Positions 32,901 through 57,597 of a DNA stretch of 64,000 nucleotides are shown one piece after another (position 1 is the stretch's first letter; every line of letters starts with the position of its first letter). Made by a program: the position numbers and the translations under genes. This stretch comes from Balamuthia mandrillaris (Eukaryota). The DNA lies in contig JAVKOQ020000026.1 of NCBI GenBank assembly GCA_031835245.2, forward strand, positions 62,001 to 126,000, read 5' to 3'. The notes under the pieces are model-generated. The model searched no databases and was not told the DNA's origin. It saw nothing but the letters and a program-made list of their open reading frames with translations.

Positions 32901-34302
32901 GCTTCATTCTTAATGCTGATGCGGAAAAAAAAAAAACAGACTCTAGGCTTGGTTCAACCAACAAGAAGATATTTAATGGAAGAATCGTTAGACGTGTGCA
33001 AGAACGGAAAGCGAAGCAAGAGCAAGGATCTGCAGAGAAGATGTGTTCTTTTTAACGACATGCTTTTGCTTCTTAAGGTCAGAAAGGAAGGCTATATAGC
33101 TCCTGTGCAGATCGACCTCAGCAATGAACACATCAAACTGTTTGATGTTGGAGATACTGAAAGTATGTTTCTGCGTTCTTCTTCTTTCTTTATGCGTCTG
33201 ACAATGATTGGTCTTTGAACAGAGATCAAAAATGCGTTTGACTTGAAGGACGTAAAGAGAAAAAAGATGTTTACTTTCTGCTTCCCGTCTGCGCAGATGA
33301 AGAGCCAATGGCTGAAAGCAATTAAGTCCATCATTAATACTCACCAGATGAAACGTTTCATGCGTACGTTTATATGCTTGTTGCCTTTGTCTCAACGCCA
33401 CCTCTAACCACTTGAAAACAGAGGCTGAAGAACAGGCACAGCACGAAAAGGTAGAACGAGAACAATTTCAATTGTTACAACAACAGCACAATTCAGTTAC
33501 ATTCGGGGCAGCCGAAAGTAACGCAGCAAGAGCCGTCGGCTTTGCAGTATCCGACCTCAAAGATGCGAACAGCGTTCTCAAACAATCCTCCTCTTCTTCA
33601 GCTTTATCCTCATCGGCCATATCATCACAACCAGAGAACAGTTCCTCATCTGTGGAAATCCCCGATACCAGCAACAAGATTCCAGCTGCGGTGACGGTCA
33701 ATAAAAGAGCCAAGTTCCAACGCAGTATGAGTTTGAATAGCATGCAAAACATGAAAATAGAGAACACGAAGAAAGCTTCGACAACTCCAACTGGAGGAGA
33801 GGAGCAACCACAGCAACCTCCCACACCTTCGTCATCGACAAAAAGAACTCCCCGTGCACAGTATTCCCAAGACGAAATAGCTGCTGCCGCTTCATCCTCT
33901 GGCAAACACAGTTCTGTGAACAACAAACAGACAGGAGAGAAGAAAGCTCGGGTGCTTTCTCCGCGACAAGAATCTTCTCCTTCAATGTTTGCTCCAACGT
34001 CACCGAGAAATAAGAGCACGCCCCTCTCTCCAAGAGAACGTAATAGCTGCAATAGCAAAGAACGTTGCGAAAGACGGGACAGCAAAGAGGAAAGGAAACG
34101 TGCAAACAAAACGAAGGACAGCGCCAGCAAGGTGAAAGAGCAGGACCAAGAGAAGAAGTATGACAAATTAGTAGACGAGGCAGTCGGCGAAGGAGATAAA
34201 CCAGAGGAGGTGGAAGCGAGAGTAGAAGAACCAAGGGAAGAGGAAGGGAAACCTGGGGAAGCATTAACGGACCAAGACCCCATCTTGGTGAATGCTTCTT
34301 AG
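29992..34302 (+). CDS. Rho guanine-nucleotide exchange factor (DH-PH) with S/P-rich extensions; multi-exon
   Basis: EIVNTERDYVRDM, IFSNVE, FKMYTVYCSNQ, LIKPVQRICKYPLLL, VNEGNRE; PH-like VLFNDMLLL and QWLKAI. Confidence 0.9.
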
Positions 34303-34351
34303 TCTTACGATATTTTGTGTTTTTTAACTTGTACCAAAATAAAATTGTATT

Positions 34352-34580
34352 CGTGCATTCGAGTTTATTGACTAAGGCGGCGCCACGATCAAGCCGATCC
34401 ATGGGACAACGAAAATAAAGCAAAATTAGTAAAAGGAAAACAAAAAACAGAGAAACAAAAAATAACCCACCTCCGGCGTGCCTAATCACGGCTTGTCTTA
34501 CGACTCGCTATAAGCAACGGTGCCGGCACCAAAGCAACCTTACCGCCTACCGCCCCCTCACAGAGGAGGAGGAGGAGGTG
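34352..34580 (-). ncRNA. Putative Fanzor omegaRNA: scaffold ~34580-34471, predicted intron 34470-34372, guide from flank 34371-~34352
   Basis: GC-rich hairpin cluster overlapping and following the ORF stop, the position expected for TnpB/Fanzor omegaRNAs; boundaries are inferred. Confidence 0.6.
34372..34430 (+). repeat. Terminal inverted repeat, Fanzor 3' (omegaRNA) side
   Basis: CTAAGGCGGCGCCACGATCAAGCCGATCCATGGGACAACGAAAA..TTAGT aligns with the reverse complement of 36066-36126. Confidence 0.88.
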
Positions 34581-35518
34581 GTAAGTGCTTGCAACGTAAA
34601 AAAGCGGATCAAGATGTTTCGGGCGGCGTTGGCATCTCGATCGGCCTGGTAGCCACACTCGGGTTGAGGGCACCGAAAGGTCTTGTTTCCCCCCAACTGG
34701 TGGTGGACTTGGCCGCACTTGCCGCAGGTTTTGGAGGTGTATTCCTCATCGCAGAGGCAGACCGTACAGGACGGAAATTGCTGGGCCTTGTTGAGGAGCC
34801 TCTGCCTGAAGCGATAGTGGGACCAGGTCAGCATGGCTCTGGCCGTTCGCGAGCCAATGCGGCGGTGGCCTCGCCGCACCATCTGCTGGCTCCTGAACTC
34901 TGGCAGAAGGATGAGGGAGAAGTTCTTGACCAACCAAAACACGAGCTTTTTGTGGAGGTCATCCACCAGGTTGCGGATCCTCTGGCGAAGCCGAGCAGCG
35001 GCCCTTCGGAGACGGCGCCGTTGCCTGTGGTTGCCCTTGGTGCCCTTACTCTGCATGCGATCCAGGCGGTGGCACAGCTTGCCTATCTCGTTGATGTCCG
35101 CTTTGCCCCACTCGGTGACCTCCCCGCAGCCGTTGTAGGTGGTCATGAATGTGCGCACTCCTGGATCCAAGGCGATGATGCCTGCCTCTCTCCTTCGGTG
35201 CTCACGGGCTTGGCTCTCGCCCATGAGCTTCAAAGGCTGAGGCACACAGAGGTAGTAATGGCCCAGTCGAGTGTCCTTCACCAGACGAACGGCATAGAGC
35301 ACCTCCGACGGAACTTTGTAGTTCTTGTCCCTCGCTTTGATTCGCGCCTCCCCGAAGAAGAGTTGGCGGATGGACTTGCTGTGGTTCCACTCCCTGGCTT
35401 GGATGCTGAGAGACTGGCTCTTGTCCTTCCGACCACGGAACTTCATCTTGAATCCAGTCCTGCCCGCCGCCAAGCTGGTTTTCACGCCGTTGAAGAAAAA
35501 GTTCGAGGAAAATTCCAT
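34547..35518 (-). CDS. Fanzor2 (IS607-derived TnpB-like) RNA-guided endonuclease, apparently N-terminally truncated (323 aa from first in-frame ATG; frame open to ~35830)
   Basis: FKMKFRGRK, RuvC-I IIALDPGVRTF, LVDDLHKKLVFWL, ILLPEF, MLTWSHYRFRQRL, rearranged RuvC-II CDEEYTSKTC, zinc finger CGKC..CPQPEC, RuvC-III DRDANAARNI. Confidence 0.92.
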   Translation of the reverse strand: MEFSSNFFFNGVKTSLAAGRTGFKMKFRGRKDKSQSLSIQAREWNHSKSIRQLFFGEARIKARDKNYKVPSEVLYAVRLVKDTRLGHYYLCVPQPLKLMGESQAREHRRREAGIIALDPGVRTFMTTYNGCGEVTEWGKADINEIGKLCHRLDRMQSKGTKGNHRQRRRLRRAAARLRQRIRNLVDDLHKKLVFWLVKNFSLILLPEFRSQQMVRRGHRRIGSRTARAMLTWSHYRFRQRLLNKAQQFPSCTVCLCDEEYTSKTCGKCGQVHHQLGGNKTFRCPQPECGYQADRDANAARNILIRFFTLQALTTSSSSSVRGR

Positions 35519-36030
35519 TATTTCCCGCCAATGAGCATGTTTCCAGCAGCGTTGTGGAAGAGGCGCACAGAGGTTCGTGATGCTGTTCTTTTTTAAACAA
35601 AAGAAATCATTAGTGAGTGGTTGGTAACAAATTTTTTTTCCATCATCAAAAAATGTAGTGAGCGAGCAGAGAAAAAAGAACGCTACCTTTTCAATCGGAG
35701 CAGTGCCCCTGCCTGCGGCTGAACCGCTTCGGTTTCCACCTCTGCCTCCTTCCGCTGGTTTCCTCCTTGTGTAGTAGAAGCGTAGCAATGAGAAATACGG
35801 TGGTGCGTGGAGCTTCGTGGATGTGTGTGTCTGTGTGTTTACTTTTGAAAAGAAAGAAATGAAAAGAAAAGAAGAGAAGAAAAGAAAACGAGTAGCAGAA
35901 AAGTGTCAAGGCGAATGGCGAGTACCAAAAGTTTATTGGCGGCAGCAGCAGCATGAGCATCCATTCCGTACACCCCACCCCACACCCCAATCCACCACTT
36001 TGCCTTCAGAGACGTGGGAGAAGGAAGGGT

Positions 36031-36060
36031 TGTTTTGGCGGGAAACATGCTCATTGGCCC
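36031..36060 (-). promoter_or_regulatory. E2F-like site (TTTCCCGCCAA) plus CCAAT box inside the transposon 5' end; related copies at 35521-35544 and 57558-57587
   Basis: TTGGCGGGAAACATGCTCATTGGC matches the E2F consensus TTTSSCGC and CCAAT. Confidence 0.45.
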
Positions 36061-36065
36061 AAAAG

Positions 36066-36126
36066 ACTAATGTCGTGATTTCTTTTTTCGTTGTCCTTAG
36101 ATCTTATGATCTTTGCGCCGCCTTAG
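36066..36126 (-). repeat. Terminal inverted repeat, Fanzor 5' side
   Basis: Reverse complement reads CTAAGGCGGCGCAAAGATCATAAGATCTAAGGACAACGAAAA..TTAGT. Confidence 0.88.
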
Positions 36127-36470
36127 TTTATTGACCGTGTTTACTTCTCCCTATTCTCTATCACCCTTTCGTTCTTCTTCCCTTTCTGCTGCTTCACTAC
36201 TCTCCTGATGTACTCGTTTGTCGACAGTGGCTACTTCTGTATTCGCTGAAGTGGGACAAGTGACCACTGGGCAAAGCTCTTCGTTCTCCCTGTCGCCTTT
36301 CCTTTCTCTTTCAGTTAATCTGCTCTGTGCCCTCCTCCCTTTTGTTGCTCCTCCGCCTCTCTCTTTCTCTTCTCTTTGTCGTGTGATTGTTGCAACCGGA
36401 AACAAACGAAACGATATTGGTTATCATGTGTTTTCTTATGTTCAAAAGTGTATACAAGGGTAAAACAAAC

Positions 36471-37604
<1,134 letters not shown>

Positions 37605-56129: not shown

Positions 56130-56659
56130 TGCGCGTGTTACCGCCTAAAGTCTCCTCTGTTGCTGTTCTTTCTTGCCCTCTCTTTTGTGGGTGCACAGCC
56201 TGTGGCTCCACCAGCCTGCACCGATAGAGTATGATCGGGTGCCAGTTATTCCTTTTGTTGGATGTATGGATCGATCTCTGTAACCGTAAGAGCTCTGGGC
56301 AAGCTTGAGCCCCCCCCCCCATGGGGAAGCCATGGCCCTCCCTGATGCTGTGTCCACCAAGACATTGCTGGTAGCGGTGGTAGTAATGTCGGAAGTAGGG
56401 AAAACTTCCCTTCTGCTTTGTTGGTTTTGTCCTCTCTTTCTCTCTGTTTGCTGAGTGGTTCAGATGAGAGTTCACCGCCTGCAACAGAGCTGCCGGGGCG
56501 TTTTCCGCTCTTCTTTTCCGAGTTGCAGTGGAAGTAGCGGAAGCAGTGGTGCGCCCCTCTTCCTTGTGGGGCTCGACCGAGGTGGATGGCCAAACCCCCA
56601 AGAGGTAGCAAACTGTTTTCCGCACTGTGGGTAACATTCCATTTGGCCAGCTTCCAGTA

Positions 56660-57597
56660 GCGATCATCACGAAATGTGATGAGTGGAGAAACAAAGAACT
56701 CAACCTTTGCAATCGGAGCAGTGCTCCTGCCTGCGGCTGAACCGTAGAAGAGAAGAGAAGAGAAGAGAACGATGAAGAGAAGAGAAGAGAAGAGAAGAGA
56801 AGAGAAGAGAAGAGAAGAGAAGAGAAGAGAAGAGAAGAGAAGAGAAAGAGAAGAGAAGAGAAGAGAAGAGAACGATGAAGAGAAGAGAAGAGAAGAGAAG
56901 AGAAGAGAACGATGAAGAGAAGAGAAGAGAAGAGAACGATGAAGAGAACGATGAAGAGAAGAGAAGAGAAGAGAAGAGAAGAGAACGATGAAGAGAACGA
57001 TGAAGAGAACGATGAAGAGAAGAGAAGAGAAGAGAAGAGAAGAGAAGAGAACGATGAAGAGAACGATGAAGAGAACGATGAAGAAAGAGAAGAGAAGAGA
57101 AGAGAAGAGAAGAGAACGACGAAGAGAAGAGAGAAGGACGAAGAGAAGAGAAGAGAAGAGAACGACGAAGAGAAGAGAACGACGAAGAGAAGAGAAGAGA
57201 ACGACGAAGAGAACGACGAAGAGAAGAGAAGAGAAGAGAAGAGAAGAGAAGAGAAGAGAAGAGAAGAGAAGAGAAGAGAAGAGAAGAGAAGAGAAGAGAA
57301 GAGAAGAGAACGATGAAGAGAAGAGAACGATGAAGAGAAGAGAAGAGAACGATGAAGAGAACGATGAAGAGAACGATGAAGAAAAGAAAAGAAAAGAAAA
57401 GAAAAGAAAAGAAAAGAAAAGAAAAGAAAAGAAAAGAAAAGAAAAGAAAAGGAGTAGCAGAAAAGTGTCAAGGCGGTGGAGGAGCAACAAAAGCTTATTC
57501 GCTGCACTGAGAATCCATTCCATTCACTCCACCCGCCGCTTTGGGAGAATGAAGGGCTGTTTTGGCGGGAAACATGCTCATTGGCCCAAAAGACCTT
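56660..57597 (-). mobile_element. Degenerate second copy of the 5' part of the Fanzor transposon, interrupted by an expanded microsatellite
   Basis: 57558-57594 = 36031-36067 (37/37), 57452-57475 = 35890-35913 (24/24), 56710-56744 vs 35692-35726 (34/35); collinear and in the same orientation. Confidence 0.8.
56746..57450. repeat. (AGAAG)n / (GAGAACGATGAA)n / (GAAAA)n compound microsatellite
   Basis: Directly visible, ~700 bp. Confidence 0.92.

Follow-up and report, generated by a model that had tools for sequence, protein, structure and literature searches.

A Fanzor2 element of about 1.75 kb in the genome of Balamuthia mandrillaris has inverted ends and a flanking direct repeat, carries a Fanzor2-type RuvC domain and is devoid of a serine recombinase. 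We read it, with a probability of roughly 0.6, as an internally deleted copy of an insertion-polymorphic Fanzor2 family with terminal inverted repeats (TIRs) as well as target-site duplications (TSDs), which would derive from an IS607-type element, be moved in trans by a DDE transposase and profit from restorative homing. The positions of its parts are collected in the table.

Features of the Fanzor2 element and of a related relic in the window, the whole 64-kb stretch of DNA that was analysed
Feature	Position	Strand	Remarks
TSD copy 1	34363..34372		Exact repeat; single copy kept in the empty allele (joint 34361->36125, 11 letters fit both sides). In the 9-bp reading 34363-34371, with C34372 then an element base
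TIR at the gene's 3' end	34373..34415, loosely to ~34430		Joins other flanks at 34371-34372 in X1, X3 and X9
Predicted guide-RNA region	34373..34556	-	Position by analogy to Fanzor2 loci
Fanzor2 C-terminal 316 codons	34547..35497	-	Later WED strands, RuvC I (DPG), RuvC II (rearranged E), zinc finger, RuvC III; open frame
42-nt filler replacing start codon and ~272 N-terminal codons	35499..35540	-	In-frame ATG 35518 (323-aa frame)
Family 5' leader	35541..36082	-	Contains a promoter-like stretch plus pyrimidine tracts resembling an intron; gene models from other copies and the relic match it
TIR at the gene's 5' end	36083..36125		Other copies stop behind 36125; other interiors join before 36083/36085
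TSD copy 2	36126..36135		Exact repeat
Older relic of the family's 5' half (leader and ~50 first codons)	56488..57594	-	blastn 73-84%; tblastn with P0001 residues 1-51

An earlier note on this DNA had described imperfect TIRs of about 60 bp and a perfect flanking direct repeat, inserted between the convergent 3' ends of a RhoGEF and an actin gene, and this description proved accurate. The TIRs are perfect over their first 11 bp and agree in 34 of 45 columns over 43 bp and in 46 of 62 columns over about 58 bp. At most 11 bp are repeated exactly at both ends of the element (34362-34372 = 36125-36135), which is compatible with a symmetric TSD of 10, 8 or 6 bp and also with an asymmetric one of 9 bp. 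The two converging genes end with the last frame stop of RhoGEF at 34302 and the actin stop at 36471. Nowhere else in the window does an inverted repeat of at least 11 bp abut a direct repeat of at least 8 bp within 6 kb, and none of 20 shuffled windows contains such an arrangement. A pattern search of the window recovered no more than two exact TIR starts, and its eight matches at two mismatches are at chance level; in prokaryote genomes the TIR patterns had no match. Viral contigs gave one lone TIR-pattern match per search, each lacking an inverted partner and read as chance. On the minus strand, the second TSD copy contains an AATAAA, 336 nt past the actin stop. This motif of the duplicated target (36126-36135, 34363-34372) is plausibly the poly(A) signal of the actin gene, and the duplication places a second copy of it just beyond the 3' end of the element.

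We compared the region 33600-36450 with four of 23 listed sequencing runs, three of DNA (X1, X3 and X9) and one of RNA (X21), leaving aside the small shares of X15-X20. The empty allele, which the earlier note had proposed to look for in reads, was found in all three DNA runs: it is shorter by exactly 1,763 bp, with a single copy of the repeat left. The filled allele of X1 has a depth of 27.7 and shows no differences across both junctions; as the assembly may itself derive from X1, the filled allele of this run is no independent support. The empty allele of the same run, at a depth of 14.8, lies on a more diverged haplotype, and in X9 a single contig of 1,781 nt spans the empty site. Both ends of the element were moreover found with other flanks in contigs of the runs. 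Because its ends occur with other flanks and an empty site exists, the element is a member of a multi-copy, insertion-polymorphic family; single-copy TIRs and lack of any empty site, which the earlier note had named as counter-evidence, were not what we found. An alternative in which the locus is an ordinary IS607-type Fanzor2 relic, with repeats that are due to chance or to the assembly, would suit the IS607 character of its close relatives (see below). It is refuted by the run data and retains next to no probability, since in every DNA run the empty site is shorter by precisely the element plus one repeat, the ends recur elsewhere, both filled junctions are present in contigs and the shuffled windows yielded 0 of 20.

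Single interior contigs reach depths of 148 and 126 in X3, as against 9-24 for the flank haplotypes, and of 105 and 83 in X9, as against 12.5 for the flank. In X1 the summed interior depth is about 10,000 compared to about 45 for the flank, a figure which is no copy number and which hints at a larger element family in that sample. In addition, 12 B. mandrillaris protein records, from contigs that have 12 different lengths, belong to the family of the element. The closest record is annotated as 'Transposase', and several records of the species match the shared part at 93-97% identity. The Fanzor2 family in this amoeba is real and has recently been mobile.

Some further observations concern the runs and the records. 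Derivatives of the element are numerous in X1 and X9, where they are internally deleted, nested or nearly in tandem; examples are a pair of copies separated by 18-19 bp and an end that sits within another copy at 35763. The flank haplotypes (33600-34360 and 36136-36450) differ by about 5-10% and stand at about 2:1 in depth in X1. This suggests that the genome is triploid or hybrid; it is the deeper haplotype that bears the insertion. Finally, two family records are annotated under unrelated names, one as a BRCT domain protein and the other as TFIID subunit 3-like.

The reading frame of the element carries the motifs DPG, ILLPEF, EEYTSKTC and RDANAARN, and its protein matches the Pfam families Cas12f1-like_TNB and OrfB_IS605. 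The RuvC II glutamate is rearranged: it is E251, which is invariant in our alignment (A1) and lies six residues before the zinc finger (C258). Together with the RuvC III aspartate, all three catalytic residues are retained in this copy, as is the zinc finger. DPG, the rearranged glutamate and the RuvC III aspartate have been described as the Fanzor fingerprint (PMC10711439). The best solved relative in the PDB is 9B0L (E = 4e-22; profile E = 2.5e-44), which is the mimivirus Fanzor2 ApmFz2 (PMC11832414), and among the 19 and 21 PDB matches no chain was recognisable as Fanzor1. Judged by its sequence, the protein is of the Fanzor2 type, and the view that the pattern DPG / LLP.F / E.YTS is a Fanzor/pro-Fanzor RuvC signature agrees with the motifs present and with this best match. 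The ESM Atlas gave no usable match for the protein, and a scan of viral contigs with this single protein detected no relative. Full-length proteins of the family (P0001, P0130-P0140) have a C2H2-like zinc-finger motif at their start and an acidic/lysine low-complexity tract of variable length.

The earlier note had treated the nuclease as whole. This did not hold, as the family protein P0001 aligns to the element from residue 273 onward only, and about 272 N-terminal codons are missing in this copy. The lost codons hold the N-terminal domain (NTD), the first WED strand, the HTH_OrfB_IS605 region and REC1, so that the copy, being without residues 1-272 of P0001, does not have the complete NTD-WED-REC-RuvC-ZnF architecture. 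In ApmFz2, a solved Fanzor2, it is REC and WED that read the TAM (PMC11832414). Since NTD, WED strand and REC1 are replaced by filler, the nuclease of this copy is likely dead. Part of the filler repeats, in inverted orientation, the element's own promoter-like stretch at 36038-36058 (I3, 21 nt, 95%); fillers templated in this way are a usual outcome of gap repair that was interrupted.

In four of four runs, loose ends at 35541 run into a protein start of the kind seen in P0001, and those at 35498 run into the codons directly preceding residue 273. Because these ends lead into the missing coding sequence, full-length-type junctions occur in all four. A full-length member of the family would measure about 2.5 kb, with Fanzor2 alone inside, and at that length there would be no room for a transposase or a serine recombinase. 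The N-terminal half is present in nine of the 12 family protein models. None of the 12 annotated models is intact from the start to RuvC III; the breaks may in part be assembly indels. Indels at 34689 are common among the X1 contigs.

The window contains, besides the element, the older relic of the family's 5' half, which has the leader-to-start junction as in P0001 and in which a pattern search found no TIR. Its internal (GAAGA)n/(GAAAA)n microsatellite has expanded to about 700 bp. About 360 bp separate the relic from the ATG (56129) of an RCC1-repeat gene that follows it on the same strand, and the promoter or leader of this gene may come from the relic. The promoter-like stretch 36036-36060, which contains a CCAAT and an E2F-like motif, is kept exactly in the relic, and these motifs hint at cell-cycle-timed expression.

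The origin of the nuclease gene was analysed in 158 related loci from viral and metagenome contigs. A serine-recombinase motif lies upstream in 81 of them, or in 53 of the 94 that have at least 1.5 kb upstream, and all nine recombinase-motif loci that were tested match Pfam Resolvase. The protein of the element is 45-54% identical to its recombinase-linked relatives. TIRs of at least 10 bp combined with a duplication of at least 8 bp were found in none of the 84 relatives with enough flank, where nine weak AT-rich cases of 4-6 bp were seen; conversely, the IS607-type end motif is present in 11 of 62 relatives and absent in the element. For the trees, 270 of 278 proteins cover the core and 221 were left after removal of near duplicates, while the second tree has 51 rows; both were built without P0001, which is frameshifted, and without Fanzor1, mollusc and Chloropicon sequences. 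FastTree places the protein of the element within a clade of 68 tips (support 0.97), in which 7 of 20 loci bear a recombinase, and a quick IQ-TREE tree places it in no strongly supported set.

As the close relatives sit in recombinase-bearing IS607 elements, the simplest reading is that the Fanzor2 gene likely stems from an IS607-type ancestor and then switched carrier, whereby the serine recombinase was lost. The move of the nuclease from an IS607 to a TIR/TSD carrier, as proposed in the earlier note, is thus supported by the 81 recombinase-linked loci on the one hand and the TIRs and TSD of the element on the other. A grouping with Fanzor1 or with ordinary bacterial TnpB, which would have spoken against it, was not seen: 9B0L is the best match and the protein nests among recombinase-linked loci, in trees that hold no Fanzor1.

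In every reading the element and one duplication add up to 1,763 bp, and the empty site can therefore not fix the length of the TSD. Junctions of other copies, which are one-sided and taken from the matches listed, are more informative. At the gene's 5' end they stop behind 36125 in five contigs of X3, three of X9, ten reads of X21 and one joint of X1; some lie at 36124 and 36122, and none at 36126 among the matches listed. The 8- and 6-bp readings are disfavoured, because both would make G36126 an element base. On the side of the gene's 3' end, three joints reach C34372 and four X3 contigs reach 34371, with none at 34373 among the matches listed, which fits a 9-bp duplication plus an extra terminal base, or a 10-bp duplication with a preferred last base. 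We therefore lean, by a little, towards a duplication of 9 bp, regard 10 bp as a tentative second choice and consider 8 bp improbable; 6 bp is disfavoured by the same one-sided junctions ending at 36125. Of the lengths considered in the earlier note (8, 10 or 6 bp), 10 bp, or the 9 bp it had missed, is favoured over the other two.

hAT and P elements make TSDs of 8 bp. An assignment to hAT/P on that ground, one of the two superfamilies suggested earlier, is disfavoured by the one-sided matches listed in which other copies end at 36125; the other suggestion, a MULE-like element, still fits. A duplication of 9-10 bp would point to MULE (MuDR) or AcademH rather than to hAT/P. Resolvase and DDE transposase families had no match in 146 of the 169 stop-to-stop frames of at least 125 aa in the 64-kb window, nor in the frames of the element, which bears out the reported absence of a serine-recombinase TnpA. 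Some contigs and reads have no more than the last ~42 bp in common with the element, their loose ends lying before 36083 and before 36085, which shows that the same TIR is also used by other elements.

The predicted guide-RNA region folds no better than shuffled sequences (z = +1.22) and has no match in Rfam. A covariance model from the 3' ends of 26 relatives, which contains just three base pairs, reached a best E of 2 in the element; for this model 29 of 72 loci passed the end-motif filter, L124, L128 and L140 were dropped, and L003, L117 and L133 were re-cut by eye. A hairpin forced into a pseudoknot-ready form (loop 34538-34542, end 34373-34377) lies 8.4 kcal/mol above the best fold, with the pseudoknot energy left out. 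A 13-bp helix is predicted between 34480-34492 and the TIR at 34382-34394, a weak signal that 171 of 5000 shuffles equal, and it covers that part of the TIR which differs from the opposite TIR. As to expression, about 3% of the RNA run X21 contained 194 reads from both strands, mostly of full-length-type copies, and no splice joints were listed among them. The IS607-type relatives (loci L079-L138) have a 5-nt hairpin loop that is complementary to the bases before the terminal GCG and covaries between loci, as the known pseudoknot would lead one to expect; 29 of 72 loci met the simple filter for it.

These results bear on two further alternatives. An IS607-type Fanzor2 might have landed in an existing TIR element and retained an RNA end of its own, some 105-120 nt inward of the TIR; its guide would be fixed and internal and would target those members of the TIR family that lack Fanzor. 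The stretch 34478-34500, where short hairpins and weak end-like motifs precede ~20 nt and a U-rich tract, is in line with such an end, as are two joints (in X1 and X9) that break at 34494, while other interiors share just the TIR. The model of the relatives' ends, however, matches nothing at 34478-34500, and the 27 letters after the X1 joint at 34494 differ from the element's other end, which excludes a simple empty carrier. One shared joint position among dozens is moreover expected by chance, and the best predicted helix pairs the interior with the TIR. We consider a landed IS607 element quite improbable.

Alternatively, the TIR element is real and Fanzor2 is now mere cargo (Pack-type), the family being spread by the DDE transposase alone. 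That not one of the 12 annotated models is intact, that the contigs show many internal deletions and frameshifting indels and that no guide-RNA fold could be recognised all argue for this view, and so does the length and variability of the duplication, which fits badly with a TAM that includes it (PMC13565253). It is opposed by the retention of the three catalytic residues and the zinc finger, which recent copying alone could also explain, by the full-length-type junctions in four of four runs, and by the TIR-TIR mismatch positions, which lie in the weak interior helix. On balance, Fanzor2 as cargo appears rather unlikely.

In the reading that we prefer, a deleted copy of a family that homes, a DDE transposase encoded elsewhere in the genome likely mobilises the element in trans, as judged from the anatomy of the element alone. 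Full-length members are predicted to make a guide RNA that runs from their 3' end through the TIR into the flank. Fanzor2 would then re-cut the site vacated by excision, and the element would be copied back from the sister or homologous chromosome, in keeping with the restorative-homing model (PMC13565253). The copy in the window would likely be a passive passenger which could still supply guide RNA in trans.

In the Fanzors studied so far, the TAM includes the 5' duplication and the scaffold includes the 3' one (PMC13565253). This arrangement suits short fixed duplications, and a long variable one of 9-10 bp fits it badly. With such a duplication the guide may start with the duplication itself. 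We have therefore also considered an active amoebozoan Fanzor2 family that has adapted to a transposase duplicating 9-10 bp, a reading that we find doubtful. A duplication of variable sequence would then be no fixed part of TAM or scaffold, and the guide would begin with it. Two Fanzor2s show minimal activity with guides of 7-9 nt and a plateau at 11-12 nt (PMC10432273); the filled site could be spared since its 9-10 matched bases would be near the minimum of the enzyme. Alternatively, the guide might be fixed inside the element and convert Fanzor-less relatives. If true, either arrangement would amount to a way of targeting that has not been described in Fanzor2. The family seems to have expanded strongly in one sample.

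A Fanzor2 in a TIR/TSD carrier is not unprecedented. Such elements have been published as 'Fanzor2*' for the algal species Chloropicon primus and for molluscs, where they are proposed to be intermediates between IS607-borne Fanzor2 and Fanzor1 and where two captures were described (PMC10711439); a 2026 review repeats the class (PMC13565253). The Balamuthia element resembles them in being a Fanzor2 in a cut-and-paste element with TSDs, partly degenerate TIRs and no IS607 (PMC10711439), and its TIRs and TSD are confirmed by pre- and post-insertion loci, namely the empty site in three of three DNA runs and the filled one in X1. It differs in its amoebozoan host and in the N-terminal deletion of this copy; its own duplication measures 9-10 bp. 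With IS607-type Fanzor2 (IS607EU, ACa-1/2 of Acanthamoeba and the mimivirus ApmFz2) it shares the DPG/rearranged-E RuvC and, in full-length Balamuthia copies, HTH_OrfB_IS605; unlike these, it has TIRs and a duplication and is without serine recombinase and end motif. The MuDR-like ROr-4, PBl-3 as well as MCi-4 (Bao and Jurka, PMC3627910) are likewise non-autonomous elements with TIRs, a 9-bp TSD and no internal transposase, but they carry Fanzor1 and occur in fungi. AcademH elements have TSDs of 9 or 10 bp (PMC10045372), whereas no transposase or helicase is seen in the Balamuthia element. The 'ghost' loci of Spu-1 (PMC10432273) also have ends and an RNA region without a whole Fanzor and may guide in trans; the Balamuthia copy, in contrast, keeps 316 codons and belongs to Fanzor2.

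Balamuthia is not mentioned in the available text and supplement of PMC10711439 nor in the available parts of PMC10530073 and PMC13565253, and the literature searched, with Repbase and subscription papers outside its scope, contained no report of TIR transposons from this organism. The Balamuthia genome preprint, as far as available, leaves transposable elements largely for future annotation (10.1101/2025.02.25.640156). The family is likely a further, amoebozoan capture of Fanzor2 and, based on the different host, likely separate from the algal and mollusc captures.

A further capture in Amoebozoa, for which both empty and filled alleles are in hand, supports the idea that Fanzor2 has been captured repeatedly. 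It offers a natural test of how a nuclease whose TAM normally contains the duplication copes with a duplication that is long and variable. The public assembly labels the family merely 'Transposase' or gives it unrelated names. In this amoeba the family contributes to insertion polymorphism.
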